Source: Candidatus Nomurabacteria bacterium (GTDB lineage Bacteria; Patescibacteriota; Saccharimonadia; JAGOAT01). Taken from it: a stretch of DNA of 64,000 bases. Made by a program: the position numbers and the translations under genes. The notes beneath the pieces were generated by a model. It had not been told where the DNA came from. It did no database searches and saw nothing but the letters and a program-made list of their open reading frames with translations. Of this stretch, positions 4,933-38,384 are shown in pieces. Numbering within the stretch: the first letter of the stretch is position 1; every line of letters starts with the position of its first letter. The stretch lies in NCBI GenBank assembly GCA_020639315.1, contig JACKGM010000001.1:18511-82510 (forward strand), given 5' to 3'.

Positions 4933-5080
4933 AACATTGAAGTAAATGCTTAAATCAAAAGGACAACCACTGGTTGTCTATTCCAGCAGAAGGTTTGTAT
5001 TTTCTGCCTAAGTGGTTGCCCATTTCAATTACAAACCACCTGGGGCAAAGCCCACATACTGGAATAGACTCTTCTAATGT

Positions 5081-5143
5081 AAAACTAGCTTTATAGACTC
5101 TAGAGTTGAATCGGAAGTCTGGTTTTGTTTTTAACTTACTATA
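5081..5143 (-). mobile_element. MITE family B, terminal fragment
   Basis: AAAACTAGCTTTATAGACTCTAGAGTTGAATCGGAAGTCTGGTTTTGTTTTTAACTTACTATA. It is preceded by an unrelated 94-bp foldback (4976-5069; GTCTATTCCAG...CTGGAATAGAC). Confidence 0.8.
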
Positions 5144-5167
5144 TAGGAATATTGGCTTAGAATTAAA

Positions 5168-7129
5168 CTAACTAGCAGCCATAGGTGTTTGATTGAGAGC
5201 AGCGGGCCTATCGTCCTCTCCCTTTAACTGCAGAGTACGTTTCCCAAACCCAGCTGGGTTGGCAAAGCTATGATTGAATGAGGGTGCATTCCTATGACGC
5301 CCTTTACCTTCTCTTCGAGTAACTGCCATACTTGTATATGCACCGCCATCACATATCTGTAAAATTCGACACATCTCCATAAAGGCATTTATTTGTTCAT
5401 CCGTTATTTGCTCTAAGCCATAAAATTTTTGTAGCGTCGAGATCGCTAACTCTCTCATTGCTTTTTCTGCATATTCATCAGCTCCTGCTACATTGATTTG
5501 AAATGCTAATTCTTCTCCATCTCCAATAACTGCAAGCAGTAGCTCCTTTAGCCCTGTATCTACTCCCAGCTTATCGAAGAAAGCATCTGCTTGGTTCACA
5601 TTATATTTTTTCTGTAGGTGCTTTTCATTACGAGCAGAAGCAGCAGGCTTTCCAAGGTCGTGAGCTAAAATTGCTAATCGTAATGGCTTGAGTAACTCAA
5701 CTGGTAATTTGTCCGCAAAGTTTTCATCAAAATTGCGCAAAACTGTTTCAGTATGTTCAGCAAGAGTGAATCCTTCCCAGTTGCCTGTCTCACTTCCGAA
5801 AATTTCACCATAACCCTCTAGCGTCCTTGCAGCCTCTACTAATCTTTCGGGTTTAACATGCAAATCATCGAGTAGACTTATAAGTAAGTGGTTTTCTCTC
5901 GGTTTTTCACCTAGTACGCCGATACTAATGGCCATATTGCCCAGTAGTCTCCATCTCTCTTTACGGCTAGCTTTCAGATCCTCTGTGGTAGTAGTTTTTT
6001 CTAAGTCAAAAAAGGTTACTATTGAAAACGATCGACCTAGAGTACCTGATTTAATATGCTGTCTAGCACCAACAATATGTGCTTCTCGTAGGAACCGCTG
6101 GATATATTCCATATTTATGGGTACTAACTGTTCCTGATCATTTATCTTAAGCTCGGCTGTGACTATACCATCTTGGTGCTCTAATAACTGATTAATGAAG
6201 TATATAGGATACCTACTAAGAAGAGAACGAGCGTTAACACTACCTGCTAGCTGTAATACAACCGATTCTTCTACATTCGCCATACTGGCTATCGAGGTGA
6301 TATCTTCGGCATTGAAGTAACCTTTTTGTGGTAGTTTTTGCATTGCAGTCGATATTGGCAGAGCCTTATCCCGATCTTCGAAATCAAGGGGTGACCCCTC
6401 AGCTACTGGTATGAGTAAGCTCTTCATTGCCTCCAAGTATTGTGTTTTTGCTTCTGGATCAAGCTTAGAAGGATTAAATGTAAAATCCATTACAGTGGCT
6501 TCAGTATCTGGGCTTGTAATCTGATGTAGTTCTACTTGGCTGCCAGGTACCACTTGCCTTAATAAATAATCTCTCTGCTCAGGGGATAACCGTTGCTCGA
6601 GATATTCGGCTTCACTATGCCTTCGGAGGTCACCAAACTCTAGTGGTATCAACTTACCATGTTGATCTAATAATCTATTATAATATTCAGTACTCACAAA
6701 CTCTGGATCTTGTTTAATTTTTTCCTGCAATCGTAGTTCACGTTCACGATTACTACGATCAAGCCACTCTTGCTTCTCTTCTGGTGTATAACTATCAACC
6801 TTATTTAAAAAATATTGATAATAAGCTCCGCCATCCTCTTGTCGTATACGGTGTTCAGCAAATTCTTTTGCTATATCACTATTTGCAGTATACAGTGCTG
6901 GTCGCTGATTTAGATTTAGGTTACCAGTATTATTCCCACCGTTGCTGAAATTAGGGTCAACCGTCCATTGATCTGGTTTATCCGTCTCGCCAACACGACC
7001 ATGGTATGTCTCAAGTTCGGATAGGGGTATAAGCACCCCTAGTTCCCTTAGCGTATGTAATGCACGAAATTTTTCGGCATCCTCCATACTGCGTGAATGC
7101 TCAGTTCTGGTTTGAAATTGTTCTGACAT
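5168..7129 (-). CDS. Large HD-domain protein with uncharacterised N-terminal two thirds
   Basis: About 653 aa from MSEQFQT. The C-terminal HD phosphohydrolase motifs are EHTETVLRNF...LAILAHDLGKPAA. The N-terminus contains YHGRVG...RPALYTANSDIAKEFAEHR, which recalls RES/ART-fold hallmarks (weak). Confidence 0.7.
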   Translation of the reverse strand: MSEQFQTRTEHSRSMEDAEKFRALHTLRELGVLIPLSELETYHGRVGETDKPDQWTVDPNFSNGGNNTGNLNLNQRPALYTANSDIAKEFAEHRIRQEDGGAYYQYFLNKVDSYTPEEKQEWLDRSNRERELRLQEKIKQDPEFVSTEYYNRLLDQHGKLIPLEFGDLRRHSEAEYLEQRLSPEQRDYLLRQVVPGSQVELHQITSPDTEATVMDFTFNPSKLDPEAKTQYLEAMKSLLIPVAEGSPLDFEDRDKALPISTAMQKLPQKGYFNAEDITSIASMANVEESVVLQLAGSVNARSLLSRYPIYFINQLLEHQDGIVTAELKINDQEQLVPINMEYIQRFLREAHIVGARQHIKSGTLGRSFSIVTFFDLEKTTTTEDLKASRKERWRLLGNMAISIGVLGEKPRENHLLISLLDDLHVKPERLVEAARTLEGYGEIFGSETGNWEGFTLAEHTETVLRNFDENFADKLPVELLKPLRLAILAHDLGKPAASARNEKHLQKKYNVNQADAFFDKLGVDTGLKELLLAVIGDGEELAFQINVAGADEYAEKAMRELAISTLQKFYGLEQITDEQINAFMEMCRILQICDGGAYTSMAVTRREGKGRHRNAPSFNHSFANPAGFGKRTLQLKGEDDRPAALNQTPMAAS

Positions 7130-7276
7130 ATTTTTATTTTTGAAATTATTTACAGATAAGCGTAACAAAGATTTTTAGACTTGTCAATCAAGTCAAATCC
7201 TCCAAAAGCGTGAAATATTATCGACAATTATTCATCCCTACTCTATTTTATCTTCAAGAATTCCACTCTTTCCTTT

Positions 7277-7360
7277 GTCACCAAACTAAATTTCCACTAT
7301 CTTCCTGGGTCACCAAATTAAAATCCTGCAAGGATTTATGGTAGATTCAGTATTTGAATT
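7277..7360 (+). repeat. Family-A hairpin repeat cluster (degenerate GTCACC variants)
   Basis: GTCACCAAACTAAATTTCCAC... and GTCACCAAATTAAAATCCTGCAAGGATTTATGGTAGATTCAGTATTTGAATT. Confidence 0.75.
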
Positions 7361-7412
7361 GAGGCCTTTGGGGGGGGTAACACTAATTACTCTGGGAAAA
7401 AAAATGCCAAAA

Positions 7413-11292: not shown

Positions 11293-11301
11293 GCACCCAC
11301 T

Positions 11302-11565
11302 GTCATCCTCCGAAACCCGCCCCTTGTCTTGTCATCCTCCGAAGCTCGGAGAGCTTACGGGGGATCTAGCATTTTGCATTTCCTATGACCAATTCAAATA
11401 CTGGATCTCCGGTATTACCCTTCGGGTAATCCGAAGATGACAGAGGAGAGAATTGTCATCCTCCGAAACCCGGAGGGTTTACGGGGGATCCAGTATTTCT
11501 GCATTGTGCGCCGTCATCCTCAAAGTCTAGCGACCTTCATCTGGAGCTAGACTTTGGGGATCCAG
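11302..11565. repeat. Family-A hairpin repeat cluster (5 units, both orientations) between convergent genes
   Basis: Units present: GTCATCCTCCGAAGCTCGGAGAGCTTACGGGGGATCTAG; rc GTCATCTTCGGATTACCCGAAGGGTAATACCGGAGATCCAGTATTTGAAT; GTCATCCTCCGAAACCCGGAGGGTTTACGGGGGATCCAGTATT; GTCATCCTCAAAGTCTAGC...GCTAGACTTTGGGGATCCAG. Confidence 0.92.
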
Positions 11566-13156: not shown

Positions 13157-13320
13157 TATAGCAAGTTAAAAACAAAACCAGACTTTTGACCCAACTATAG
13201 AGTCTATAAAGCTAGTTTTCTTACTCACCATATCTATGGATATGGCTCTTAAGAAGAACTAACTTTCTAGTTCTCTATAGTACAGCTCAAATTGTCCGGT
13301 TTTGTTTTGAGCTTGCTATA
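13157..13320 (+). mobile_element. MITE family B, full copy (164 bp foldback)
   Basis: Termini are TATAGCAAGTTAAAAACAAAACCAGAC...CCGGTTTTGTTTTGAGCTTGCTATA. The whole element is an imperfect palindrome centred on CCATATCTATGGATATGG. Confidence 0.9.
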
Positions 13321-14217: not shown

Positions 14218-14312
14218 TAAACTTTCTCCCTTCAAATATTATATTCCAACCAGATATTTTAGCAGATCTGTTTCAATATATCAATAAAAAATTTACCCCC
14301 AGTTACCCCCTT

Positions 14313-14475
14313 AGACTTGTTCCCCAATAAGGTTTTCGGACCCAAACCGCCTATTTTGGACTATAATAATCTTTTCACTTCATCACCTTAACTCTGTTAG
14401 GGCTCTTTACGAAAAGACTATTCTAGTCTCAAACTAGGCAATCTTGGTCTCAAAAATTATTGGGGAAACAAGTCT
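14313..14475. mobile_element. MITE family H (163 bp), single copy in window
   Basis: Perfect 18-bp TIR AGACTTGTTCCCCAATAA / TTATTGGGGAAACAAGTCT. Confidence 0.75.
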
Positions 14476-14557
14476 TTTGTCATCCGCCCTTTGACTGAAG
14501 GAAAAGTCGATAATCCAGATTTCTTGAACACATTGCGTTATTTACTTTTGTTTTATT

Positions 14558-14718
14558 AACCCTGTTGCCATATAACCTCACGGCTTCAAAACTGCCATTT
14601 TTGCTCCAGACTAGCAAAACACTTCGCAGCGTAACTCCTGTTATGCTTTGTCGTGTTTTGGTATTCTGGAATAAAAATCATCAGCTTTGAACTCGCAAGT
14701 TTATATGGCAACAGGGTT
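14558..14718 (+). mobile_element. MITE family F (161-bp core, ATT on both flanks)
   Basis: Perfect 18-bp TIR AACCCTGTTGCCATATAA / TTATATGGCAACAGGGTT. It is 159/161 identical to the copy at 35363-35523. Confidence 0.92.
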
Positions 14719-14756
14719 ATTGTTAGTTTTCTTGAGTATCTGAAGGCGTAAAAGTG

Positions 14757-14803
14757 CGAGATCCTGGATCCCCCGTAAGTTCTTCGAACTTGGGAGGATG
14801 ACA
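14757..14803 (-). repeat. Family-A unit
   Basis: The rc reads GTCATCCTCCCAAGTTCGAAGAACTTACGGGGGATCCAGGATCTCGC. Confidence 0.85.
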
Positions 14804-14806
14804 GGA

Positions 14807-14845
14807 GTTGGGTCAAAAGTCTGGTTTTGTTTTTAACTTGCTATA
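14807..14845 (-). mobile_element. MITE family B, terminal fragment
   Basis: GTTGGGTCAAAAGTCTGGTTTTGTTTTTAACTTGCTATA. Confidence 0.8.
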
Positions 14846-14866
14846 TATACTCATAATTTGTTACTT

Positions 14867-14926
14867 CGGGGTCAGACCCCGTCAATTTATATCTGTTAAG
14901 GATGCCAACTTCGGGGTCAGACCCCG
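14867..14926 (-). repeat. Twin-palindrome module, type C
   Basis: CGGGGTCAGACCCCG at 14867-14881 and 14912-14926 (45-bp period). The core TTTATATCTGTT lies between them. Confidence 0.9.
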
Positions 14927-14978: not shown

Positions 14979-15296
14979 ATGGACAATTATAAGGATCTTC
15001 AAAGCAGGAAGAACGATAAAGATATTTGGTTTAAGCGTCGTCGATATGGATATGGATGGATACCAGTAACACGAGAGGGATGGATAGTAGTAGTCATATT
15101 CTTGGTCGCAGTTATTTCAGGAGCCTTCTTGATCGGGGATCAGCCCGACAACGAGCTAACCCCGGCCGTAGTCGCCTACCTTGCTACTGTAGCATTCGGT
15201 GCTATCATTTTGATCTGGATCTCTTACAAGAAAGGACCCAGACCAAAATGGCGCTGGGGCAAGAACCCTGATGATCACCCAGAAGAAGACTGGTAG
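14979..15296 (+). CDS. Small membrane protein
   Basis: 105 aa with two hydrophobic helices (WIVVVIFLVAVISGAFLI, VVAYLATVAFGAIILIWI). TGGTAAAAT at 14963-14971 lies 7 nt before the ATG. Confidence 0.6.
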   Translation: MDNYKDLQSRKNDKDIWFKRRRYGYGWIPVTREGWIVVVIFLVAVISGAFLIGDQPDNELTPAVVAYLATVAFGAIILIWISYKKGPRPKWRWGKNPDDHPEEDW

Positions 15297-15303
15297 AATC
15301 ATC

Positions 15304-15942
15304 ATGAGTACTACCAGCCAACCCAAATTTGCTATCTATGACTTGATCCTTGCTGTCTTTGCTGTCCTATTCTTGATCTCAAATCTATCTGCTACCAAAC
15401 TAGTATCATTTGGCCCAATTATTACTGATGGAGGAGCAGTCCTCTTCCCTCTTACCTATATCCTAGGGGATGTCTTGACTGAGGTCTATGGTTATAAATA
15501 TGCCAAAAAAGCGATCTGGGTAGGGTTCGGAGTAATGCTATTAGGGGTGGTAGCATTTACAATAGTCAGATACTTGCCAGCGGCTCCTGAATATACTGAT
15601 CAGCAAGCCTTTGAAACCATCCTAGGGTTTTTCCCTAGAATCGTCTTTGCTAGCCTTTCAGCCTTCCTGGTAGGATCTTTGCTCAACTCAATCAGCCTGC
15701 TCAAGATTAGATCGGCCACTGATGGCAAGGCTCTCTGGGCTAGACTAATTGGATCCACCTTGATCGGTGAATTCTTCGATACATTGATCTTTGGAGTTGT
15801 AGCATTCACTGGAATCCTTAGTAGCTATGACCTATTTAAGTTCATTCTGATCGGGTGGGCTTTCAAGACTGGTACAGAAATACTGCTTTTACCAGTGACA
15901 TATCGAGTAATTGATTGGGTCAAACGAGTTGAGATACAGTAG
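15304..15942 (+). CDS. yhhQ: Queuosine-precursor transporter (YhhQ/DUF165 family)
   Basis: Multi-TM protein with the family-typical VLFPLTYILGDVLTEVYGYKYAKK segment. Start placed at MSTTSQPKF (ATG 15304). Confidence 0.75.
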   Translation: MSTTSQPKFAIYDLILAVFAVLFLISNLSATKLVSFGPIITDGGAVLFPLTYILGDVLTEVYGYKYAKKAIWVGFGVMLLGVVAFTIVRYLPAAPEYTDQQAFETILGFFPRIVFASLSAFLVGSLLNSISLLKIRSATDGKALWARLIGSTLIGEFFDTLIFGVVAFTGILSSYDLFKFILIGWAFKTGTEILLLPVTYRVIDWVKRVEIQ

Positions 15943-16197
15943 ACTGTATTTGTCCAATCATAAAGTTGTAATCAACAAAAATAATTTTAAGTGCCCCTAT
16001 ATCCTTGTTATCAACACTGTCAACCTGACAGAATAAACATATAACAAGCTAAAAACAAAATCAGCATTCTAATCACTGCCAATGAGCAAATATTAATCGA
16101 CAGAGATATCTAACCGTATTAACAGATATTGTATTTGATACAGCTTTCAGAATTAATTTTATACAAGCGTTAAAGTAATGTATAATACGCAGTTAAT

Positions 16198-16806
16198 ATG
16201 ATAGATGAAAAATTTGTAATAATTGGTGCCTTGCTAAACATGATGGGTAGCGGGACTTATGTCTACAATACTCTTAGAGGTAAGACTAAGCCTAATCGTG
16301 TTACGTGGTTCTTATGGGCACTAGCCCCCTTGATAGCTGTTAGTGCTCAATGGTTAGAGGGTGTTACGTGGGCAGCACTTATGACATTCATGGTGGGTTT
16401 CGGACCCTTTATTATTCTCTTGTCATCCTTTGTTAACCGAAAAGCATACTGGAAAATTACTAAACTCGATATTATCTGTGGATCCATATCGATATCGGCA
16501 TTGATACTCTGGTTGGTCACAGGACAAGGTGTGGTTGCAATAATTTTTAGTATCTTGGCTGACTTGGTAGCTGGCATTCCAACTCTGATCAAAGCATTCA
16601 ATAAACCTGAGACTGAACATTATATTGTATTTAGAAATGGAGCTATTAGTGCAGGCATTACACTTTTGACCATCAAAGAATGGGGTTTTGTAAATTATGG
16701 GTTTGCGCTTTACATATTACTTATATGTTTGACTCTCTATATTTTTATAAGGTTTAAGGTAGGCAAGAAATATTTTAAAACTGACACTGCAAAGGAAGTT
16801 GCTTAA
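16198..16806 (+). CDS. Membrane protein, possibly PQ-loop-like internal duplication
   Basis: 202 aa with about 6-7 TM helices. Two similar loop motifs (YNTLRGKTKPN and IPTLIKAFNKPETE) weakly resemble PQ-loop repeats. Confidence 0.55.
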   Translation: MIDEKFVIIGALLNMMGSGTYVYNTLRGKTKPNRVTWFLWALAPLIAVSAQWLEGVTWAALMTFMVGFGPFIILLSSFVNRKAYWKITKLDIICGSISISALILWLVTGQGVVAIIFSILADLVAGIPTLIKAFNKPETEHYIVFRNGAISAGITLLTIKEWGFVNYGFALYILLICLTLYIFIRFKVGKKYFKTDTAKEVA

Positions 16807-16947
16807 TAGCCCACCGTCTAAGCCAACAACACCCCCTAATCCACCAATGTACAAAACATAATTTACTCTTATATGTTAACTACTTGAATAACCATGATTA
16901 TCTGAAGATCTTTTTAGGCTATTTGGATATAATTAATTGGTATATCT

Positions 16948-18272
<1,325 letters not shown>

Positions 18273-18289
18273 TTAGTTATCCTAACACA

Positions 18290-18657
18290 TAGGATTGAAT
18301 TCTGGTAATGCGAAATACTGGATCCCCCGTAATCCTCTATGAGGATTCGGAGGATGACAATACACCCCAGTCATCTTCCAAAATCCTGTAAGGATTTATG
18401 GGAGATCCATCTCCCCAGCGTCATCCTCGACTTTTCCGCCCTTCATTTGAAGGAAAAGTTGGGGATCCAGACTTCTAGATAATGGGTTAGGGTTTAGGTA
18501 ATACAGTTACTTTTTATGCTTATTGTTAGTTTTCTGGATACCCAGAGCAAGCTCTGAGTATGACGGATGCAAATGCAGAGATACTGGATCCCCCGTAAGT
18601 TCTCCGAACTTCGGAGGATGACAGAAGAGGAGTAGGTTTCGGAGGATGACAAGACAA
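18290..18657 (+). repeat. 368-bp direct repeat, copy 1 (itself a cluster of family-A hairpin units)
   Basis: I read it base for base as identical to 20559-20926 (offset 2269 bp), running from TAGGATTGAATTCTGGTAATGCG to GGAGGATGACAAGACAA. Confidence 0.93.
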
Positions 18658-18855
18658 TGACACTAACTTAATACTTTGTAAGTTCTATTCAATATACAAA
18701 TTAAGCATTAGTAGGATCCCAAAAGGTACTGACTTCTCCTTAAGCTAATAGCATTGGGATGACAACATATAGCCGCCTACAACAAAACCTGTTTGTTCTG
18801 GGTGATAGATTATCGATCTAGAGTTGTCGCTATTGTGACAAGTCATATCCGTAGA

Positions 18856-19021
18856 TATAGCAAGCTCAAACCAAAACTAGACAATTTGAGCTGTACTATA
18901 GAGAACTATAAAGGTAGTTCTTCTTAAGAGCCATATCCATATAGGTATGGTGAGTAAGAAAACTAGCTTGATAGACTCTAGAGTTGGGTCAAAAGTCTGG
19001 TTTTGTTTTTAACTTGCTATA
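18856..19021 (-). mobile_element. MITE family B, full copy (inverted relative to 13157-13320)
   Basis: TATAGCAAGCTCAAACCAAAACTAGAC...GGTTTTGTTTTTAACTTGCTATA, collinear with the other copies. Confidence 0.9.
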
Positions 19022-19108
19022 CGATGAGGAGCAATAGTGGCAGTTATAGACCATAAGATACAGTCAAAAGTACAGGTTTTGTTTTTCGGGGGCTATAGAA
19101 TTATCATG

Positions 19109-20347
19109 CTACAAACCTAACCCAGTCGCTACTCTTAATACCCGGCCAGCCAACCTAGCCACTACAGAACTATACCCTCCAACATTATCATAACCAATCT
19201 CTATACCTATTACTGTAGTCCCACTACCCAAATGGTCTACACTAATCCCCAGTATCACACTACTAGTGTCAGAACCGACTACATCTAGTTTGGTACTAGG
19301 CCGATAACCTTCGCTATTATAACCTTTGCCAAACTGGGAAACACCACTCAGCCTATCGTCATCACTCATTGCTTCCCTTAGTAATTTCTCGATGTCATTA
19401 GAACCAACCTTCCCTTTAATATCACAAATGATACTCAAATGCGCTATACTACCAGTCGCAACATCGGCCCTAGTAGATATTACTTGCCCGATATTACTTG
19501 CCAATACAGGGTACAGTATTGCCAACTCTTGACTTGCACCCGAACTACCAGATCTGAATGTTTGCCCAATTTCACTTACTCTATCACTATTAGTTTTGGC
19601 ATGGCTAAGGTTTAAACCAATAACCTTGATTGAGTCAACGCCAACCTTATCAGCCACTACCCCAAGTACAGGCGCTACCGCGTTGGTAGTACAAGAACTT
19701 GCTGAAAACATACCTTGATCAATAGCTTCTGCTATGTCAGATTCCCCATCCTTGGCCCCCGATACTATTAAGGGTGGTCTACTATCGCTATCACCCAATT
19801 TCCAAGGACAAGTAATCATTACGATGCCATCAGGATACATCTCATAAAAAGATTGATATACTTCCCTAACTCTTTCTGGAGTCTTGAACGCTCCTGTGGC
19901 ATCAACAACCATCTTACTACCTGAACCAAACCCAAACCCTGTTATTTGGTTTGGATCCCTGGTCATAGTAGCCGTTACTGGCTGACCATCAAATAATACT
20001 TCTTTTTTTTCTCCCAAAGTATAGCCTACTGGAAGCACCTGACCCATCGAAGCATAGACCGGGTGATACAATGTACCATGCTCAAACTTTCCCTGAGGAA
20101 ATCTTCCTGATACATTTGAAAAATTAGCCCCAAATAATCGTGCAACATCAATATCGCCAACCGTAGCCGTATTCGGATCATCTTTACCAAGTAATCCCCC
20201 TGAGAAGTTAGCTCCTACTACCGATAGACCTGCTTGTCTACCTCCTTGGTTGTTATTACTTGCGACTTTTGCAGCAACTGCAGATCCTATATCACCCAAA
20301 GCCCCGTTGATAAATATTCCAACCTCACTGCTATGCATAGCTTCCAA
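19109..20347 (-). CDS. Divergent, elongated glyceraldehyde-3-phosphate dehydrogenase family protein
   Basis: 412 aa. It has a Rossmann start GIFINGALGDIGSAVAAKV, an active-site-like SASSCTTNAVAPVLGVV (canonical S-C-T-T-N) and a downstream SHAKTNSD. It is about 75 aa longer than typical GAPDH. GGGGG lies before a TTG start at 20347; the alternative ATG is at 20338. Confidence 0.65.
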   Translation of the reverse strand: MEAMHSSEVGIFINGALGDIGSAVAAKVASNNNQGGRQAGLSVVGANFSGGLLGKDDPNTATVGDIDVARLFGANFSNVSGRFPQGKFEHGTLYHPVYASMGQVLPVGYTLGEKKEVLFDGQPVTATMTRDPNQITGFGFGSGSKMVVDATGAFKTPERVREVYQSFYEMYPDGIVMITCPWKLGDSDSRPPLIVSGAKDGESDIAEAIDQGMFSASSCTTNAVAPVLGVVADKVGVDSIKVIGLNLSHAKTNSDRVSEIGQTFRSGSSGASQELAILYPVLASNIGQVISTRADVATGSIAHLSIICDIKGKVGSNDIEKLLREAMSDDDRLSGVSQFGKGYNSEGYRPSTKLDVVGSDTSSVILGISVDHLGSGTTVIGIEIGYDNVGGYSSVVARLAGRVLRVATGLGL

Positions 20348-20440
20348 GAAACCCCCTTACTATATAACTTAATTGGTCTTTATATATTGACTATAACAGT
20401 CTTGAGAAAAATAGTCCACAGAACCAACCTTGCTACAAAA

Positions 20441-20530
20441 GCCATATCCAAAGATATGGTGAGGAAGAAAACTAGCTTTATAGACTCTAGAGTTGGGTCA
20501 AAAGTCTGATTTTGTTTTTAACTTGCTATA
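20441..20530 (-). mobile_element. MITE family B, right half only
   Basis: GCCATATCCAAAGATATGGTGAGGAAGAAAACTAGCTTTATAGACTCTAGAGTTGGGTCAAAAGTCTGATTTTGTTTTTAACTTGCTATA. Confidence 0.85.
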
Positions 20531-20558
20531 GCTTCATGACAACGGGGTTAGTAGATTC

Positions 20559-20926
20559 TAGGATTGAATTCTGGTAATGCGAAATACTGGATCCCCCGTA
20601 ATCCTCTATGAGGATTCGGAGGATGACAATACACCCCAGTCATCTTCCAAAATCCTGTAAGGATTTATGGGAGATCCATCTCCCCAGCGTCATCCTCGAC
20701 TTTTCCGCCCTTCATTTGAAGGAAAAGTTGGGGATCCAGACTTCTAGATAATGGGTTAGGGTTTAGGTAATACAGTTACTTTTTATGCTTATTGTTAGTT
20801 TTCTGGATACCCAGAGCAAGCTCTGAGTATGACGGATGCAAATGCAGAGATACTGGATCCCCCGTAAGTTCTCCGAACTTCGGAGGATGACAGAAGAGGA
20901 GTAGGTTTCGGAGGATGACAAGACAA
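20559..20926 (+). repeat. 368-bp direct repeat, copy 2
   Basis: Identical to 18290-18657. It is followed (20927-20996) by extra tandem family-A half units. Confidence 0.93.
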
Positions 20927-21016
20927 GGGGCGGGTTTCGGAGGATGATAGGAGAGAGATGGGTTTCGGAGAATGACAGAAAGGGAGTAGGGTTTCAAAAA
21001 CTAGACTTCAATCAAC

Positions 21017-21904
21017 TCAAGTAATCGATGCTTGATAAATGCCCTGGATAGTATCAGCCAATTTTTGGTTAAACTGCTCATCTGACTGATCAGCTGACAG
21101 ACCTTCGGCCAAGGCTCGACTAAAGCTAGCTATTAGACCTATGTTGCTACTAAGTCGCTGATTGGCAAGCTCCCGATCATACCCTCCAGAAAGTGCTACC
21201 ACTCGTACGACATTGGGATGACCCATCAAATCTTGGTACAAATTGTCACCCTCGGGTATGGTCAGCTTGAGCATTACCAACTGATCAGGCGTGAGCTTGC
21301 CCAACTCTTCAAGTAGTAATCCATGCAGGATCGACTCTATCTCTCCCTTGTCTTCGGCATTGATATCTACCTCTGGCTCAATGATTGGGACTAAATCAGC
21401 AGCACTAATCACCCGTGCTAGCTCAAACTGTTGCTCGACTACCTCTCTAATGCCTTCTGGGTTATTCTGCTTGATCACTGAACGCATCTTGGTACCAAAG
21501 ATATTTTTGGCGTTTGCTTCATCTAAGATTTGGTCAAGATTAACGATTGGCTTCATCAGCTGGACTCCATTTTCAAGCTCGGCCAGCCCCAAATCAATCT
21601 TGAGAAATGGGACAATATGTTTTCTCTCCCAAAGATAATCAGCAGTATCTATCCCCTCGATCTGGCTAATCATAGTTTGCCTAAAAAGGATTGCCCCCAA
21701 GATATAGTCATTAGAAAAAGCTGGACTAGTGATAATCCTGGTACGCATTTGGTGGACGAGATCATACATCTCGGCTTCAGTGCTATAGCTATCCTCGCTC
21801 ACCCCATATGACAAGAGAGCCTTGGGGGTAGAGCCACCACTTTGATCTAATGCAGCGATAAAGCCTTGGTTGTTTTTGATTTGATTGAGTTGTGTTTTAT
21901 TCAT
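21017..21904 (-). CDS. fba: Fructose-bisphosphate aldolase, class I
   Basis: [30 protein letters not shown]..., LMKP, IIEPEV and MLKLTIPE closely follow Gram-positive class I FBA. Start placed at MNKTQL (rc ATG 21902-21904), with TGTTATAAT 6 nt upstream. Confidence 0.88.
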
Positions 21905-22969: not shown

Positions 22970-23039
22970 GATTCTAAGAGTTGAGCAGAAGTCTTCTTTG
23001 CTAAATTCTGATCAAAAGTCATTAGTGTCTTAGCTTCAC

Positions 23040-23363
23040 TTAGTTCGGCTTGTGCTGTAAGCATACAATCTTCGAAAGATAGCCCAGAGAAAGTAATAAA
23101 ATACTCGATTGTAGTCTCAGCTTTGGATTAAGAGAAAGTTTGCCAAACAATTGTTTGATGGCTATCCTTGGCATTTGATAATACCTCTCCAGGACAAAAA
23201 CTGTTTCAGCAATTGCTAGGTCAGCAATATATACCTGGTGGCAACTATTTACCAGATTGATTGCAATCTCCTGCTGATACTTAACATCCCCTACTACCAA
23301 CCGGACCAGCACATTAGTATCTATGGCAACCTTCTTTAGTAGCTTGCCCTGTTTAACTCTGGC
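23040..23363 (-). CDS. vapC: PIN-domain toxin (VapC-like), short
   Basis: The VAIDTNVLVRLVVGD N-terminal acidic motif is typical of PIN domains. The gene overlaps the upstream antitoxin gene by 11 nt. From MARVKQG it is only about 107 aa, so it may be degenerate. Confidence 0.6.
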   Translation of the reverse strand, partial: ARVKQGKLLKKVAIDTNVLVRLVVGDVKYQQEIAINLVNSCHQVYIADLAIAETVFVLERYYQMPRIAIKQLFGKLSLNPKLRLQSSILLLSLGYLSKIVCLQHKPN

Positions 23364-23613
23364 CATTAGAAACTGGGCGATTTTTTTGATAATACTCAGC
23401 GGGGTCTTTGAGAGGTTTGACCTTAGCAATATTTGATTGAACAAACTGACTAATATCTTTGAAGCTTTCTGGCCGAGAAATTATAACCTTGCGACCAGAC
23501 TCATCAAAGTCTATAGTCAATCTATCCCCAAGCTTGTTTACCCCTAGCTGCTGGCGAAACTTAATGGGCATAGTGAATGTACCCTTGCTAGTCATTGTGA
23601 TAGTATCTACCAT
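23353..23613 (-). CDS. vapB: AbrB/SpoVT-type antitoxin (VapB/MazE-like)
   Basis: 86 aa with an N-terminal swapped-hairpin-type segment, TMTSKGTFTMPIKFRQQLGV. TATAAT (rc 23621-23626) lies 7 nt before the ATG. Confidence 0.65.
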   Translation of the reverse strand: MVDTITMTSKGTFTMPIKFRQQLGVNKLGDRLTIDFDESGRKVIISRPESFKDISQFVQSNIAKVKPLKDPAEYYQKNRPVSNGQS

Positions 23614-23666
23614 GGTAAGAATTATATAGCTAGTAAGAATTTATTGTAAAGTATGACTATGAGTGT

Positions 23667-24275
23667 CTAGATAGTAAGAAACCCCATCACTCGATCATAG
23701 GTGTCTTGATCTATCCTGCCCTGATCTCGAAGAATCTGGATTACTTCCTCGACTAGCATCATCCGATGCAAACTATAACCTTTGTCCTCAAGTAACTTAG
23801 TTGCACCTCGATTATAATCTAAAATTACAGCAAAATCTTCGACCACCAATCCCGAACTTTCAAAAGACACTAGAGATTCCAACTTTGAGCCCCCTGTAGT
23901 GACTAGATCATCCACGATCAATATCCTTTGACCAGTTTCAAATTCACCAATCAAATCCTTGCCCATCCCATAGTTCTTCGACTCTTTGCGGGCACAAATC
24001 CAAGGAATATTAGCCTCTAACGAGAAAGCCGATGCGACACCGATCGCACCATAGGGTATTGCCCCAATCTGATCAAAAACTAGCTCACTAGTAATAGTCT
24101 GATAGTGCCTAGCAATCTGCTTGGCAAACTCAGGATAAGATACAAAATTCCTTAAGTTACAATACATTGGAGACTTAATCCCCGAGTGGAGTGTAAAATC
24201 CCCAAACTTAATCATATTGTGATCAAACAAACCTAGTGCAATTTCTAGCTTATCGGTTTGGCCTAACTTACTCAT
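23667..24275 (-). CDS. pyrE: Orotate phosphoribosyltransferase
   Basis: 202 aa with the PRPP-binding motif RILIVDDLVTTGGSKLE. It sits in the pyr operon. Confidence 0.88.
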   Translation of the reverse strand: MSKLGQTDKLEIALGLFDHNMIKFGDFTLHSGIKSPMYCNLRNFVSYPEFAKQIARHYQTITSELVFDQIGAIPYGAIGVASAFSLEANIPWICARKESKNYGMGKDLIGEFETGQRILIVDDLVTTGGSKLESLVSFESSGLVVEDFAVILDYNRGATKLLEDKGYSLHRMMLVEEVIQILRDQGRIDQDTYDRVMGFLTI

Positions 24276-25012
24276 ACTACCTCCTCTAGTATTAATTCTA
24301 ATGCCTTTCTGATCCCCCCAATCTTAGCTGGTGGGCTAGTGATTGGTCGACCAATTACTAGATAATCTACCCCGAAGCTCAAGGCTTCGGTAGGGGTCAA
24401 GGATCTCACTTGATCATTGTGACTAGCCCAGTCTGGTCGAATACCCGGAGTAACCAATAATAATCCTTCAGTATCTTGGTTGGACCGAAGCATCTGAGCC
24501 TCTTTGGCCGAACAAACTACCCCATCCAAGCCTACTTTGGCAGCCAAACTGGCAAACTGTAATACTTTCTGATCCAGACTCCCGCCATAAATCTCTTGAG
24601 ATTCTCGGTCGGAAATTGATGTCAGGACTGTTACCCCTAGAATAATTGGCCTATTGGTAATATGATAATCAGCCAAAGACTGTTCTCTACCCTCTATAGA
24701 CGCCTGGATTGCAGCCTGGTTATTATCAATCATAATATTAAAAAACTCCGGCTGGTATCGAGTAATAGATCGAGCTGACTTCCCCACAGTATTCGGTATA
24801 TCTTTAAATTTGGTATCAGCAAAAAACCTAAGTCCTCGCTCCTTAACCAGTCTCGCCACCTTCTCCCAGCCGGCATAAGTTGCCAACTGATTGCCAACCT
24901 TGATCGTTACACCAGTACCATCTATCTGATCCAAAATTACTCTAGCTTGATCTAGCTCATCCACATCCAAAGCAACCATTATTTTGCTCTGGGGTTTAAT
25001 CTCAAACTTCAT
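24272..25012 (-). CDS. pyrF: Orotidine 5'-phosphate decarboxylase
   Basis: 246 aa with IMVALDV...DTKFKDIPNTV and VIGRPI motifs. It overlaps its neighbours by 4 nt. Confidence 0.88.
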   Translation of the reverse strand: MKFEIKPQSKIMVALDVDELDQARVILDQIDGTGVTIKVGNQLATYAGWEKVARLVKERGLRFFADTKFKDIPNTVGKSARSITRYQPEFFNIMIDNNQAAIQASIEGREQSLADYHITNRPIILGVTVLTSISDRESQEIYGGSLDQKVLQFASLAAKVGLDGVVCSAKEAQMLRSNQDTEGLLLVTPGIRPDWASHNDQVRSLTPTEALSFGVDYLVIGRPITSPPAKIGGIRKALELILEEVV

Positions 25013-25872
25013 TTTTGACAGAGTTCATTTATTGCCTGATGCCCATCACGGACTATTAAAGTAGCTGCCTGGACACTACTAGCCCCAGCTTCAAAATATT
25101 GATTTAGATCCTCGTAAGTTTCAATTCCACCTACCCCAATCACTGCCATCGTATCGGGCAGTAATTGTCTGAATTGAAATACCTGACCAAGGGCAAAGGG
25201 CATTACGGCCTTGCCACTCATGCCTGCCAACCCTGCCCCAATCACTGACTTGCCCTTATCCAATACAAGAGCATTAGGAATGGTGTTCATCGTCACGACC
25301 CCGACTAGCCGATCGTACTCTTGGTGCAACAAAGCAAGCTTATCAGCCACTATCTTCAATAAATTGGGGTCAGTATAGGGTGAAACTTTGACTGTTACCT
25401 TGACGCTACTAGTAACATCCAAGACTACTTTGACAATCTCTCCAACCAATTCAGGATCGAAGCTAACAATCTTGCCATGATCAGTATTCGGACAGCTTAG
25501 GTTGAGCTCCAGGTAATCCACTTTCATTTCATCGGCAAATTCAGCTAATGCACGGTACTCCTCTACGCTAAACCCAGCTACACTGATCATAAACTCTTTA
25601 CCTTTTTGATGTGCAAGTTCTAGCACTTCGGGGATAAATTGAGCATTGGCTTTAATGCCGGGATTGGGCAACCCAAACGAGTTGAGTCCAAATAATCCCC
25701 CATCATACCAGTTTGGGGCTGGATTAGGATCCCTTGGCTCTACAGTCATAGAACCCATCAAGACAATATCTACCTTGGTATCACAAAGAGCAAGCATATC
25801 TTCTCTGCTCTTTGCGACCGCACAAGCTGCATTCATTACCAATCGATCAAGCAACCGATTATTACTTGCCAT
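25009..25872 (-). CDS. pyrD: Dihydroorotate dehydrogenase, class 1
   Basis: 287 aa with the ELNLSCPN active-site loop and GVGGI...A. No pyrK-like partner is adjacent. Confidence 0.85.
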   Translation of the reverse strand: MASNNRLLDRLVMNAACAVAKSREDMLALCDTKVDIVLMGSMTVEPRDPNPAPNWYDGGLFGLNSFGLPNPGIKANAQFIPEVLELAHQKGKEFMISVAGFSVEEYRALAEFADEMKVDYLELNLSCPNTDHGKIVSFDPELVGEIVKVVLDVTSSVKVTVKVSPYTDPNLLKIVADKLALLHQEYDRLVGVVTMNTIPNALVLDKGKSVIGAGLAGMSGKAVMPFALGQVFQFRQLLPDTMAVIGVGGIETYEDLNQYFEAGASSVQAATLIVRDGHQAINELCQK

Positions 25873-26914
25873 AAATCACCTTTCCCTCGCCTGGATTAAT
25901 CAAAAATTCTCCCCCAGAATAAATCACTTGATTGGATTTTGTGACTTGACTAACCTTTCCTGGTACTACCATACCCGCAAAGGGACTCCACTGAGCCTTA
26001 CTAAAGAATTGGCTAGGGTCAAGCTCGTAGCTCTCCATCTTGATACTGATTAGATAATCTTCCGGCTCTAAGTTAAATATCTCTTTCGGTCTAGTATGGC
26101 ACTTATCTATTATTTGTTCGATGCTAATCTTACCCTGTTTGTACGCACTTAAGAGTAAGGGCAAAGTCGTCTCAAGCCCGGGCACACCAAATGCTCCTCC
26201 TACCTTATCCTCAAGTGTATGAGGAGCGTGATCAGACTCGACAATATCAATCTGGTCAAAATTCTCCCATAGATAATCTTGATCCCGTTCTGATTTGAGG
26301 CTAGGCAACATCTTAGCGTGATCACCAATCCTGCCTGTATCAAGTTCGCTTAAAAATAAATGATGAGGCGTAACGCCACAGGTCAGATTGTAACCTTGAC
26401 GCTTAGCCTTGATAATCTTTTCAAGCACTTCCTTGCTCGGCATATGACAGATATGGACTGGACGATTAAGACCTCTTAGCGACTCGAGTGCCAAGTCAAT
26501 AGTATCTTCCTCGCTATGGAGTAAGACGACCTTATCCTCCGGCCAAGCTTGATAAATCTTGCGCAGGTGTTCTATATCTAGCAAATACCCTCCAGTAGTC
26601 TTATTGAGGTATAGCTTAAGTCCGATCGCCAAATCACTGACCCCTGGGAATTGATCTAGATTGTCACCAAGAGAACCGAAGTGAAACCCAAGCTCAACCA
26701 AGGTTTTACCCTTGGCGATTGTGATTTTTTCTTCTAGCTTTTCTAGGCTAGTAATGGGCTGAGCATTGTTTGGCATATCGACGATGGTCGTGAACCCTCC
26801 AGCTAGGGCTGCCTTTGTGCCAGAGATAAAGTCTTCCTTAGTAGTCTGCCCAGGATCACGCAAGTGTACATGGACATCGATTAGGCCTGGTAGTAGTATT
26901 TTATCCTGGCTCAT
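25862..26914 (-). CDS. pyrC: Dihydroorotase
   Basis: Metal-binding LIDVHVHLRDPG, plus HLF and ESDHAPH motifs. Start placed at MSQDKILLPG (rc ATG 26912-26914), because the track N-terminal extension runs into a MITE fragment. Confidence 0.88.
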   Translation of the reverse strand: MSQDKILLPGLIDVHVHLRDPGQTTKEDFISGTKAALAGGFTTIVDMPNNAQPITSLEKLEEKITIAKGKTLVELGFHFGSLGDNLDQFPGVSDLAIGLKLYLNKTTGGYLLDIEHLRKIYQAWPEDKVVLLHSEEDTIDLALESLRGLNRPVHICHMPSKEVLEKIIKAKRQGYNLTCGVTPHHLFLSELDTGRIGDHAKMLPSLKSERDQDYLWENFDQIDIVESDHAPHTLEDKVGGAFGVPGLETTLPLLLSAYKQGKISIEQIIDKCHTRPKEIFNLEPEDYLISIKMESYELDPSQFFSKAQWSPFAGMVVPGKVSQVTKSNQVIYSGGEFLINPGEGKVIYGK

Positions 26915-26929
26915 TAATTTTAATTGTAT

Positions 26930-26970
26930 CATAGTTAAAAACAAAACCGGACAATGTGAGCTGTACTATA
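26930..26970 (-). mobile_element. MITE family B, terminal fragment abutting pyrC start
   Basis: CATAGTTAAAAACAAAACCGGACAATGTGAGCTGTACTATA matches the first 42 bp or so of the copies at 18856 and 36115. Confidence 0.75.
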
Positions 26971-27091
26971 ACCCCAGGGCTTACAAACCGCCCATGCTTG
27001 CAACTATTGGGATTTGGGGCTAATCTGAGATTATACTTACTTTAAATAACCTAGGCTTTAAGGCCTAAGATTCAAGGAATACTTAAAAATA

Positions 27092-28594: not shown

Positions 28595-28620
28595 TAAGAT
28601 CTACTACATGGAGAGACTGT

Positions 28621-29048
28621 ATTTGTATCCGTCATACTCAGAGCTTGCTCTGGGTATCCAGAAAACTAACAACCAACATTAAAAGTAACTGGGTTAACTC
28701 AATACATTCAATCCATTATCTAGAGTTCTGGATCCCCAACTTTTCCTTCAAATCAAGGGCGGAAAAGTCGAGGATGACCCAAACTCCTGTCATCCTCCGA
28801 AACCCGTCCCTCTCTTGTCATCCTCCGAAACCCGCTCCTTGTCTTTGTTATCCTCCGAAGCTCGGAGAGCTTACGGGGGATCCAGTATTCCTGCATTGCC
28901 TTGAGATTCAATTCAAATACTGGATCTCCGGTATTTCTCTAAAGAGAAATCCGAATATGACACGAAGGGGGGCGGAAATTTGGGCTGTTGGCAGAGAAGG
29001 GATTGTCATCCTCCGAAACCCGGAGGGTTTACGGGGGACCTTGTATTG
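28621..29048. repeat. Family-A hairpin repeat cluster
   Basis: Begins GTCATACTCAGAGCTTGCTCTGGGTATCCAG and includes tandem half units and head-to-head doublets. It ends GTCATCCTCCGAAACCCGGAGGGTTTACGGGGGACC. Confidence 0.92.
28789..28935 (+). repeat. 147-bp direct repeat, copy 1 (family-A composite) left of the RelE/DinJ cassette
   Basis: 144/147 identical to 29750-29896. The differences are two G/A changes in CCGAAACCC versus CCAAAACCC, and GTTATCC versus GTCATCC. Confidence 0.9.
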
Positions 29049-29749: not shown

Positions 29750-29896
29750 GTCATCCTCCAAAACCCGTCCCTCTCTTGTCATCCTCCAAAACCCGCTCCT
29801 TGTCTTTGTCATCCTCCGAAGCTCGGAGAGCTTACGGGGGATCCAGTATTCCTGCATTGCCTTGAGATTCAATTCAAATACTGGATCTCCGGTATT
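29750..29896 (+). repeat. 147-bp direct repeat, copy 2, right of the RelE/DinJ cassette
   Basis: See copy 1. The offset is 961 bp. Confidence 0.9.
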
Positions 29897-30103
29897 ACCC
29901 TTCGGGTAATCCGAAGATGACACGGGAAGGGATTGTCATCCTCCGAAACCCGGAGGGTTTACGGGGGATCCAGTATTCCTGCATTGCCTTGAGATTCAAT
30001 TCAAATACTGGATCTCCGGTATTACCCTTCGGGTAATCCGAAGATGACACGGGAAGGGATTGTCATCCTCCGAAGTTCGGAGAACTTACGGGGGACCTTG
30101 TAT
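29750..30103. repeat. Family-A hairpin repeat cluster with an internal ~100-bp tandem duplication
   Basis: The block ...CCAGTATTCCTGCATTGCCTTGAGATTCAATTCAAATACTGGATCTCCGGTATTACCCTTCGGGTAATCCGAAGATGACACGGGAAGGGATTGTCATCCTCCGAA... occurs twice in tandem. Confidence 0.92.
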
Positions 30104-35128: not shown

Positions 35129-36072
35129 CTAACTCACCTCCTGCCCTAGTGCTGCTCGTATTACAAACCTTGTGACCCCTGTATTACCTAGATCTAATGG
35201 GGCTACATAGCCCCTGGGTACCCTATAATCTTCCCTCGTATCGACAATCTGCCGCCTTACCCTATCTGGCACTTTCTCAACCTCTGATTTCCTATTACGA
35301 TAGTTCACTACTCTAGAGAGACCAACTGCCCCTAAGAAGGCACCTAGCCCGGCAAATCTATTAACCCTGTTGCCATATAACCTCACGGCTTCAAAACTGC
35401 CATTTTTGCCCCAGACTAGCAAAACACTTCGCAGCGTAACTCCTGTTATGCTTTGTCGTGTTTTGGTATTCTGGAATAAAAATCATCAGCTTTGACCTCG
35501 CAAGTTTATATGGCAACAGGGTTATTGCTCGAAATATCATTAACCCCCAGCCCAGCCATTCCACTAGTAGGAATATCTACAAACCAGTCCCTCAGCCTTT
35601 GGCGATTTTGATATTTTCTTATAGTCTCTGGATATTTTTTGGATTCAGCATAAAACTTCAATCCGTTGATTAGGGCTTGCATCAAGCGCTGATTGTATCT
35701 TATAGTGAACTCTTCCCACTCTAATTTCTCCTCAGAATCTAGGTCGGGCAATAGCTTTAAGTAGATTTGACCTAAAGAGACCAATAACCTTGCATTATCA
35801 CCATCTTGCTCTGGTTGAATAAACTGCCAACTATCACCTTCATCGTCTACTGACAGGCCAGTAAAGACAATCTCTAGTTCTGATAAATCTGGCTTATCCT
35901 CAATATTGGGCAGCCCAAAAGCATCATAATACCCTCTCAAGTATTGAAGGAGATCCTTTTGCCATTCTTCCTCAACTAAACCCTCACCAAATAGCATATG
36001 AAGTGCTGGACTATCCTCAATGGTAATCTTAGGTAGTTTTCTCTCGTAACTATTGTTTGTTTCAGGGGTCAT
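35129..36072 (-). pseudogene. Orphan gene split by a 161-bp MITE (track ORFs 35506..36072 and 35129..35422)
   Basis: The MITE core 35363-35523 sits between the two ORFs. It supplies the stop of the upstream part and the first 20 codons of the downstream part. Removing 161, 164 or 167 bp joins them in frame (...GVNDISS-N-RFAGLGAFLG...), giving about 259 aa. Confidence 0.7.
35363..35523 (+). mobile_element. MITE family F inserted in a coding region
   Basis: Same TIRs, flanked by ATT (35360-35362 and 35524-35526). It separates two same-strand ORFs that become one on excision. Confidence 0.92.
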
Positions 36073-36114: not shown

Positions 36115-36278
36115 TATAGCAAGCTCAAAACAAAACCGGACAATTTGAGCTGTACTATAGAGAACTAGAAAGGTAGTTATTCTTAAGAGCCATATTCATA
36201 GATATGGTGAGTAAGAAAACTAGCTTTATAGACTCTAGAGTTGGGTCAAAAGTCTGGTTTTGTTTTTAACTTACTATA
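36115..36278 (-). mobile_element. MITE family B, full copy
   Basis: TATAGCAAGCTCAAAACAAAACCGGACAATTTGAGCTG...GGTCAAAAGTCTGGTTTTGTTTTTAACTTACTATA. Confidence 0.9.
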
Positions 36279-37989: not shown

Positions 37990-38384
37990 GTCACCAAACC
38001 AAAACCCCGCAGGGATTTATGGGAGACCCACCTCCTCTGTCATCTTCGGATTACTCTTTAGAGTAATACCGGAGATCCAGTATTTGAGTTAGCCACAGGC
38101 AATATGGAATGCTGGATCCCCCGTAAGTTCTCCAAACTTCGGAGGATGACAATACAATACACAATGCCGAATACTGGATCCCCCGTAAACCCTCTGGGTT
38201 TCGGAGGATGACAAGACAATGCCATTAACTTAAGAAAAAGCCAGTATCTTTTGACATCCTATTAAAGCTTGATTTGTACATTGAATAAAACTTGCAAAAG
38301 CTTAAGTTAATGGCATTGAGATGACAGGAGAAGGACGGGTTTCGGAGGATGACAATCCTCTCCTCCGTCATCTCCGGTATTTGA
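37990..38384. repeat. Family-A hairpin repeat cluster downstream of rplT
   Basis: Includes GTCACCAAACCAAAACCCCGCAGGGATTTATGGGAGACCC, GTCATCTTCGGATTACTCTTTAGAGTAATACCGGAGATCCAGTATTTGAG and several inverted units. Confidence 0.9.

Follow-up and report, generated by a model that had tools for sequence, protein, structure and literature searches.

Perfect direct repeats around a GAPDH-like gene in a repeat-dense Saccharibacteria genome and their probable origin by repeat-mediated recombination

The window analyzed here is a stretch of 64,000 nucleotides (nt) of contig JACKGM010000001.1 (assembly GCA_020639315.1, positions 18,511 to 82,510 of the forward strand), deposited under the name Candidatus Nomurabacteria bacterium. 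Between the genes for queuine tRNA-ribosyltransferase (tgt) and class I fructose-bisphosphate aldolase (FBA) it contains two copies of a mosaic repeat, here called A, which bracket a segment, B, with a single gene for a protein of the glyceraldehyde-3-phosphate dehydrogenase (GAPDH) fold, gapL (Table 1). Tgt, GapL and FBA are consecutive proteins (MCB9834431, MCB9834432 and MCB9834433) encoded on a 445,775-bp contig with H6792_ locus tags. Judging from protein similarity, the name of the record is probably wrong, as the close relatives of tgt, FBA and the neighbouring genes are all from Saccharibacteria; the nearest tgt loci among 185,579 species genomes also all belong to this group, at no more than 70% identity. 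The usual picture of Saccharibacteria and other bacteria of the candidate phyla radiation (CPR) is one of small, streamlined genomes poor in repeats. The locus displays the opposite of streamlining at fine scale, its spacers being packed with several families of small repeats.

The earlier note on this DNA, made from the sequence alone, described perfect 368-bp direct repeats at an offset of 2269 bp, and this was reproduced: the first (R1) and second (R2) copy of A are identical at 368 of 368 positions and have the same orientation. In an all-against-all self-BLAST of the window they form the longest repeat pair and the sole long perfect one. The next pairs of repeat nests are 262 nt at 82%, 211 nt at 91% and 171 nt at 92% identity, so that the pair is as exceptional among the clusters of the window as had been claimed; the best single pairs of miniature inverted-repeat transposable elements (MITEs) reach 97-99% over ~169 nt. 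The content between the copies (a full MITE of the family called MITE-B, the GAPDH-family gene and a half MITE-B) was also found as described, with the limits of the half copy refined to those of Table 1.

Table 1. Features of the tgt-FBA region and of the old gap-like site (positions in the window)
Feature	Position	Strand	Remarks
Repeat debris at the window equivalent of the site of the sister gap-like gene (P0002)	14236..14857		A-core copy and MITE-B end
tgt, queuine tRNA-ribosyltransferase	17067..18272	-	left neighbour; Pfam TGT, 2.8e-126
R1, first copy of mosaic repeat A	18290..18657		starts 17 nt upstream of the tgt start codon
Clear hairpin units in R1	18320-18359(+), 18369-18408(-), 18419-18468(-), 18586-18623(+)		
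D element, MITE-like	18655..18756		102 bp; CAATG...CATTG terminal inverted repeats
Full MITE-B, downstream of gapL	18856..19021		92-94% identical to copies 13157-13320, 36115-36278 and 45030-45193
gapL (P0001, MCB9834432.1)	19109..20338	-	409 aa; open reading frame 19109-20347, ATG at 20338
MITE-B right arm alone	20437..20530		direct orientation with the right arm of the full copy
Spacer between MITE-B arm and R2	20531..20558		28 nt, left context of R2, read from the sequence
R2, second copy of A	20559..20926		220 nt upstream of the gapL ATG
28-nt tandem array	20879..20995		unit TTCGGAGGATGACA and purine-rich spacer; 4.1 copies (Tandem Repeats Finder, TRF); right edge of R2 (20926) falls within
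FBA, class I fructose-bisphosphate aldolase	21017..21904	-	right neighbour; NCBIfam PRK05377, 466 bits

The identity of the two copies breaks off sharply at both edges. The left flanks are ...CCTAACACA for R1 and ...GTAGATTC for R2, and the right flanks are TGACACTAAC and GGGGCGGG, respectively. No target-site duplication was found around the whole A-B-A structure, the outer flanks of which are ...CCTAACACA and GGGGCGGG..., and no tRNA gene is present as an integration target. The last three nucleotides of R1 (CAA, 18655-18657) are part of the terminal inverted repeat of the D element, which leaves a duplicated block of effectively 365 nt, with 3 nt of microhomology added. R2, in turn, runs unbroken into the remainder of the tandem array and then to the FBA stop codon, to within 21 nt of which the array reaches. 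The spacer on the left side of R2 has no homologue elsewhere in the window. The A sequence folds far better than shuffled sequences (z = -4.6), and Rfam returned no match to it at the gathering threshold or at E <= 1.

Repeat A had been described as a composite of hairpin units of one family, named family A. Such units are indeed present (four clear ones, one degenerate unit and half-units), but A is a nest of several element types, which also include a MITE-like element of ~200 bp and the start of the 28-nt tandem array. The ~200-bp element occupies the middle of A (positions about 131-334) and consists of a ~160-nt core with bounding inverted family-A units; diverged copies of it were found at 28617-28779 (88% identity) and 14470-14804 (78-92%, with a MITE nested inside). 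The last 48 nt of A are the beginning of the tandem array, which goes on past R2 and is cut short in R1. Its unit-spacer-unit arrangement occurs also at 11300-11343, 28787-28859 and 52326-52363, and at the first of these sites the continuation seen to the right of R2 (the ext type) is repeated at 97.7% identity over 44 nt across the junction. The right-hand junction of R1 sits in a family-A unit that already held an older insertion of D. On either side of this element stands one copy of an 11-nt direct repeat, GGATGACAAGA (18644-18654) and GGATGACAACA (18757-18767), and the one mismatch between these copies suggests that the D insertion predates the perfect A pair. The homologue of D at 38217-38318 shares the left junction and has the flanks GGATGACAAGA and AGATGACAGGA. 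As both types of right continuation, ext and D, recur at other nests, the right boundary of A appears to be a module boundary that was reached through homology.

The left boundary of A is of another kind. At five other nests an inverted partner unit (...CCGGAGATCCAGTAT) precedes the equivalent of the first ~30 nt of A. Both R1 and R2 are without this partner unit, and both begin at the same nucleotide within an inter-unit spacer. In all, about 35 hairpin units of family A, lying on both strands, were picked up in the 64 kb by a regular-expression scan. They combine conserved flanks (GGATCCCCCG ... CGGAGGATGACA) with inner stems that vary yet remain complementary. There are at least six of these stems, among them AAGTTC/GAACTT, AAGCTC/GAGCTT, AAACCC/GGGTTT, AATCCTC/GAGGATT and TATTACCC/GGGTAAT, and the units often stand in pairs as inverted units ~30 nt apart; example sites are 11330-11563, 28730-29041, 29807-30098, 38038-38213 and 52154-52342. 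The family resembles the repetitive extragenic palindromes (REP) and bacterial interspersed mosaic elements (BIME), in that its units are imperfect palindromes, intergenic and clustered in alternating orientation. REP/BIME-like repeats of this kind, which have no Rfam match, are unusual for a CPR genome.

MITE-B is non-coding, 164-166 bp long and present in the window in about six full copies and further fragments. Its 27-nt terminal inverted repeats (TATAGCAAG...CTTGCTATA; TATAGC...GCTATA) are those expected of a MITE. The full copy and the lone right arm on the two sides of gapL make up an inner pair of direct repeats (18943-19021 and 20452-20530; 79 nt, 95% identity) within the outer A pair. 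Another palindromic MITE family of ~165-169 bp has two copies, 14554-14722 and 35359-35527, which are 98.8% identical; the first is the one nested in the A-like element at 14470-14804. A Pfam scan of 36 open reading frames (ORFs) of the window revealed no transposase, integrase or replication protein. The scanned ORFs are ordinary chromosomal genes (peptidase M1, ApbE, pyr genes, ProRS, IF3, GlmS and others), and no REP-associated tyrosine transposase (RAYT-type, HUH Y1) that could go with family A was found in the 64-kb window.

Given this anatomy, it could be asked whether A itself is a 368-bp non-autonomous transposable element, a composite MITE/REP-like one freshly copied by a transposase encoded elsewhere, with the gene between the copies being incidental. 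The hairpin richness of A, the resemblance of its units to REP/BIME-type or IS200/IS605-type hairpin ends, whose insertion leaves no target duplication, and its two sharp ends would suit such an element, and the MITE copies of up to 97-99% identity speak for recent activity of mobile elements in this genome. We nevertheless find the idea quite improbable. The mosaic occurs only twice in 64 kb, the other nests sharing sub-blocks with it at <=94% identity, and a start in the middle of an inter-unit spacer together with an end inside a tandem array are not element termini. In addition, target-site duplications and a transposase in the window are both lacking. That A is a single MITE was rejected, its ends being truncated and non-terminal. 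Likewise, the A-B-A structure lacks the complete flanking elements with defined termini by which a composite transposon is recognized.

The A-B-A structure is a real chromosomal structure, and this conclusion rests on assemblies other than that of the window. All four A junctions were found at 100% identity in independent short-read assemblies. The A|B-start and B-end|A junctions are carried by two metagenomic contigs, L004 and L005, and the A|ext junction is crossed by L089, from a metagenome-assembled genome (MAG) of the same species (GCA_020428505.1), as well as by the Logan unitigs L090/L091. On the tgt side, the Logan unitigs L001 and L003 (SRR12358676, SRR28385526) include tgt and end exactly 30 nt inside R1, the break at k = 31 that is expected where A gains a second left context. 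Sequences from the FBA side end at 20918, owing to an exact 41-nt match with 11303-11343, and all unitig ends are accounted for by exact 30-mer repeats of the window. The short-read contigs of this organism are 2-8 kb long and break at every repeat nest; a contig of 445 kb therefore points to long-read support. It is true that repeat copies become identical when a long-read assembly is polished with short reads, so that a few masked differences are possible, and that short-read graphs collapse A into one node. That the second A copy, or its perfect identity, is an artefact of assembly or polishing is nonetheless very improbable: there are two distinct left and two distinct right flanks of A, each seen in independent assemblies, tgt, gapL and FBA follow each other in the annotated source genome, and the A copy of L004 is identical to that of the window.

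The cargo of the structure, gapL, is the only ORF in the 2269-bp unit formed by one A copy and B. The recorded protein is the ATG-start form; for the 412-aa product with a TTG start there is no exact record. No Pfam match to Gp_dh_N or Gp_dh_C was obtained, even at E = 10, and the NCBIfam model GAPDH-I (TIGR01534) gave 62 bits, which is below its family cut-off of 367. The best match to a GAPDH in the PDB had E = 8e-11 over residues 117-403, and identity to solved GAPDHs is about 20%. In an alignment with 25 remote relatives the protein keeps G15/I17/G18 (INGALGDIG; GxGxxG), S215-C216 (SCTTN), H246, R290 and D384-N385. When the AlphaFold 2 (AF2) model (pLDDT 78, pTM 0.83) was compared by Foldseek, 1npt_O was the best match, covering the whole chain with E = 2.5e-25 and a target-normalised TM of 0.83, and the family assignment of the earlier note is thereby borne out as to the fold. 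With type I GAPDH the protein has in common the whole-chain fold, the Rossmann GxGxxG motif, the Cys of SCTTN, the catalytic His and the YDN motif. It differs in lying far under the family cut-offs, in a disordered insert of ~55 residues (48-103) and in a range of two species. It is not an equivalog of gap, and the model and the conserved residues suggest that it is probably a GAPDH-fold dehydrogenase, predicted to be catalytically competent.

Among 1.84e9 cluster representatives only one relative of gapL was found below E = 1e-30. This is P0002 (373 aa, 36-38% identity), from a sister species, and in the collections searched gapL is confined to these two species. After P0002, the best relatives are GAPDH-like domains in giant proteins (E = 1e-16 to 1e-7), such as P0003 (2089 aa), P0004 (4828 aa), P0008 (2750 aa) and P0016 (1455 aa); ordinary GAPDHs score lower.

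The sister species (GCA_017983775.1, locus L102) has housekeeping proteins that are 76-90% identical to those of the window (tgt 89%, Vut_1 90%, FBA 84%). Its gene order is FBA, tgt, Vut_1, a 97-aa gene, P0002 and a 273-aa gene. The FBA-tgt spacer is about 190 bp long there and is without A. Nucleotide homology between the window and L102 ends at 18287 and starts again at 21005, and the entire 2.7 kb between tgt and FBA is consequently lineage-specific, the bracketed segment included. P0002, the sole gap-like homologue of the sister, lies beyond the tgt block, about 2.5 kb from tgt, and adjoins the orthologue of the window gene o294. Its neighbours are fast-evolving too, the 273-aa protein being 40% identical to o294 and the 97-aa protein 52% identical to o105. 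On these grounds gapL looks like a fast-diverging orthologue that changed its position by about 5 kb and not like a foreign gene. The base composition of the repeat-bracketed segment matches that of the host and an orthologue lies near tgt in the sister; foreign acquisition is thus unsupported and the relocation would be internal, and horizontal acquisition of the segment was rejected for these reasons. The A-B-A arrangement was seen in no other genome of the collections searched, and at 80 tgt loci of species in the Genome Taxonomy Database (GTDB), all distant (tgt <=70% identity), neither gapL nor FBA adjoins tgt.

The place in the window that corresponds to the site of P0002 contains repeat debris. 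The A-core copy in it (14470-14804) is in direct orientation with R1 and R2, and the MITE-B end of 41 nt (14805-14845) is 100% identical to 18981-19021. When the non-coding parts of B were compared with the flanks of P0002 and with the old site, only this 41-nt MITE-B end matched. Three direct A-like copies (14470-14804, R1 and R2) accordingly bound the tgt block and gapL.

The account that we regard as reasonably probable is that homologous recombination driven by repeats moved gapL, and that A was then duplicated or homogenised. The FBA-tgt spacer, of about 190 bp in the sister, would have expanded into a nest of 2.7 kb in which non-coding elements, mobile or repeated, have gathered, namely the family-A hairpin units, the ~200-bp element bounded by such units, the 28-nt tandem array, D and MITE-B. 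Into this nest gapL may have moved from the other side of the tgt block through homologous recombination between dispersed repeats; this step is suggested by the nested direct-repeat pairs, the diverged third A-like copy and the MITE-B stub at the old site. The last event would be a duplication or gene conversion that rendered the two 368-bp mosaics identical. Its right end could have been anchored in the pre-existing family-A unit beside the older D insertion, and on the left it would end next to the tgt leader in a junction formed without homology or through microhomology. The product is a 2269-bp unit flanked by direct repeats, which recombination of the RecA type could loop out, delete or amplify in tandem. 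No element-encoded enzyme would take part in any of these steps.

Of the origins considered by the earlier note (recent duplication, gene conversion, or acquisition through recombination between repeat clusters), recombination between clusters remains the best explanation, foreign acquisition does not, and the word 'very recent' is to be taken with care: a single very recent duplication and an older duplication kept identical by continuing gene conversion both fit the perfect identity of A. The patterns of one full MITE-B plus one arm, and of repeat, insert and repeat, may be read as the outcome of the integration of a circle by a single crossover through shared repeats. In Campbell-type integration, too, the insert ends up between direct duplications of the shared homology, and the full MITE-B with its arm and the A pair are the products expected from it. 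The likeness does not extend to the empty site with a single A, which was not found: the sister spacer is without A, and contigs of the same species break in A.

Several observations weigh against the account of relocation followed by duplication or homogenisation. The truncation point shared by R1 and R2 on the left requires an illegitimate junction or, again, an older duplication that was homogenised later. At the old site the identity of the A-like copy reaches no more than 78-92%, so the move, if it took place through A, was not recent. The gene is present in no other genome searched, so that either the window or the sister may have the derived order. The evidence for the junctions consists of assembled contigs and unitigs, which carry neither copy number nor linkage across A. 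Finally, a contig of the same-species MAG GCA_020428505.1 (L002, JAGQMQ010000071.1) follows the window at 99.97% identity as far as 18288-18291 and then departs into 98 nt found nowhere else, neither in the window nor in the loci retrieved for comparison. The short ORF in this head shares no words with any of 5.8e9 proteins (X-padded query) and is probably not a real gene. The head is either a strain-specific variant exactly at the left edge of A or a contig-end artefact, and this departure is not accounted for by the model that we favour.

The prediction that the unit can loop out or be amplified found suggestive, not decisive, support in the two contigs with circular appearance. L004 (ERZ27309329, MEGAHIT k141) is 2410 nt long with a terminal overlap of 141 nt, which gives a cycle of 2269 bp, 100% identical to the window. 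L005 (ERZ28655102; 2285 nt, 19-nt overlap) is a circular permutation of exactly one 2269-bp unit. Three sites in B set it apart from L004: at the centre of MITE-B it has a 2-nt deletion and a substitution, and upstream of gapL a change from C5 to C4. The sample thus contains two variants of the unit. Both contigs follow the path B-end, A, B-start, which is not contained in the assembled A-B-A. The chromosome is represented in these assemblies by contigs of ~2.4-2.5 kb that end inside tgt (L098, 15291-17803; L099, 15396-17796), and complete FBA and the 121-aa gene were not recovered. Fragmented flanks beside a closed unit fit a higher depth of the unit than of the flanks. The extents of L098 and L099 are nearly identical, from which it follows that both assemblies were made from one read set and count as one sample, probably of low coverage, and one observation.

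These contigs raise the possibility that the A+B unit is a free circle or an (A-B)n-A tandem array in some populations, an enzyme-less analogue of the translocatable units of the insertion sequence IS26 that uses homologous recombination at A, with A-B-A being its single-copy integrated state. This is compatible with the account given above, but unlikely. Self-closure as exactly one unit along a path absent from A-B-A, the poor state of the flanking chromosome, the two unit variants and the different sites of gapL in the two species are all as such a unit would have it. On the other hand, L004 and L005 almost certainly stem from the same reads, and a loop in a de Bruijn graph needs no circle to close once low coverage or tip clipping has removed both flank edges. 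A circle of this kind has no unique junction. The unit also has no replication or recombination gene, so that a free circle would not be self-maintaining; for want of a replication gene, a tiny plasmid was rejected as well. Nothing similar was found in IMG/VR and the JGI metagenomes (searched with a 27-mer from A and with P0001) or in the plasmid and phage collections (searched with the whole unit).

IS26 encodes its own transposase, which catalyses the translocatable-unit reaction. The likeness of A-B-A to IS26 translocatable units and pseudo-compound transposons is that a circle of one repeat and its cargo, integrating at another copy, gives repeat-cargo-repeat with no target duplication around the whole. 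Unlike IS26, A encodes nothing, no transposase was found in the window, and one graph loop is all that speaks for a circle. Other composites flanked by MITEs are also known, such as the integron mobilization units and MITE-flanked integrons of Enterobacter and Acinetobacter, in which two identical single MITEs with terminal inverted repeats enclose the cargo and a target-site duplication surrounds the whole. They resemble A-B-A in having non-autonomous repeats on either side of a cargo gene. The flanks of gapL, in contrast, are truncated mosaics in direct orientation without a target-site duplication.

The closest parallels are the tandem duplications mediated by REP/BIME or insertion sequences in Salmonella and Escherichia coli and the type II amplifiable units of DNA (AUD) in Streptomyces. 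In these as in A-B-A, long direct repeats made of dispersed non-coding repeats bracket a segment, host homologous recombination suffices, and loop-out, deletion and tandem amplification are predicted. They differ in that at the present locus amplification is only a prediction, the repeat is a mosaic of several kinds of small element instead of a single REP, insertion sequence or rrn copy, and the host is a CPR bacterium with a reduced genome. On present evidence, A-B-A is a clean example of a well-known outcome of recombination and not a new mechanism. What is unusual is the setting, a Saccharibacteria genome dense in MITEs and hairpins with a near-orphan GAPDH-like cargo. A literature search on Saccharibacteria MITEs and on the assembly accessions found nothing relevant. 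If the unit truly excises or amplifies, it would offer a simple, enzyme-independent way of changing the dosage and position of fast-evolving genes, and it would be a warning for MAG assembly of these lineages, since each nest interrupts the short-read contigs.

As gapL and tgt are both encoded on the minus strand, each of them has the A sequence upstream, in equal orientation. This leads to a further explanation of the perfect identity, according to which A holds a promoter or operator that co-regulates tgt and gapL, and older copies were kept identical by concerted evolution under selection. A parallel in the sister species lends it some appeal, since a perfect repeat, unrelated in sequence to A, stands upstream of tgt and the gap-like gene there too and is present in a second strain. 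The promoter and terminator scan, however, stayed at chance level and Rfam gave no match. R2 is 220 nt away from gapL with a MITE arm in between, and the parallel in the sister may be a coincidence in repeat-rich spacers, where the second copy could serve the divergent 97-aa/Vut_1 operon. Selection for co-regulation is thus an improbable cause.

The sister repeat is a perfect direct repeat of 73 bp made of two GAGGTCTAACCTC hairpins, at L102 7552-7624 and 9870-9942 (offset 2318). The two copies stand upstream of tgt (at 47 nt) and of the gap-like gene (at 58 nt), so that in both species each of these genes stands behind one copy of a perfect repeat. In the second sister strain (L106) the unitig breaks at both copies. 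The window has an orthologue of the sister hairpin element (~75%) only at the old gap-like site, at 14858-14925.

A broader reading, in which we place little trust, would make the FBA-tgt spacer and the neighbouring spacers a recombination hot spot of a reduced CPR genome, where enzyme-less nests of hairpins and MITEs would serve as portable homology and shuttle single-gene cassettes. The gapL unit, as a circular or tandem-amplifying unit of 2269 bp, would be one such cassette, and strain-specific content would appear at the same breakpoint. Were this true, it would amount to a transposase-independent form of gene mobility, and A might give tgt and gapL the same upstream control sequence, as the 73-bp repeat of the sister hints.

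Gene order differs between the window and the sister at repeat nests. Besides the 2.7-kb region, the segments 5070-7412, 15925-17081 and 23032-27090 are window-specific in comparison with L102; window-specific genes are a 666-aa ORF without a Pfam match, a 202-aa ORF between Vut_1 and tgt, and a pyrC/pyrD/pyrF cluster. The sister, in turn, has a sortase/glycosyltransferase block that is not in the window. Fragments of MITE-B or family A were seen at or near several breakpoints (5081-5143, 7320-7349 and 16040-16064). Vut_1 (15271-15942), of the YhhQ-type family of queuosine-precursor transporters, adjoins tgt here and in several other Saccharibacteria, and the two make up a queuosine-salvage pair that stays together amid rearranged surroundings.

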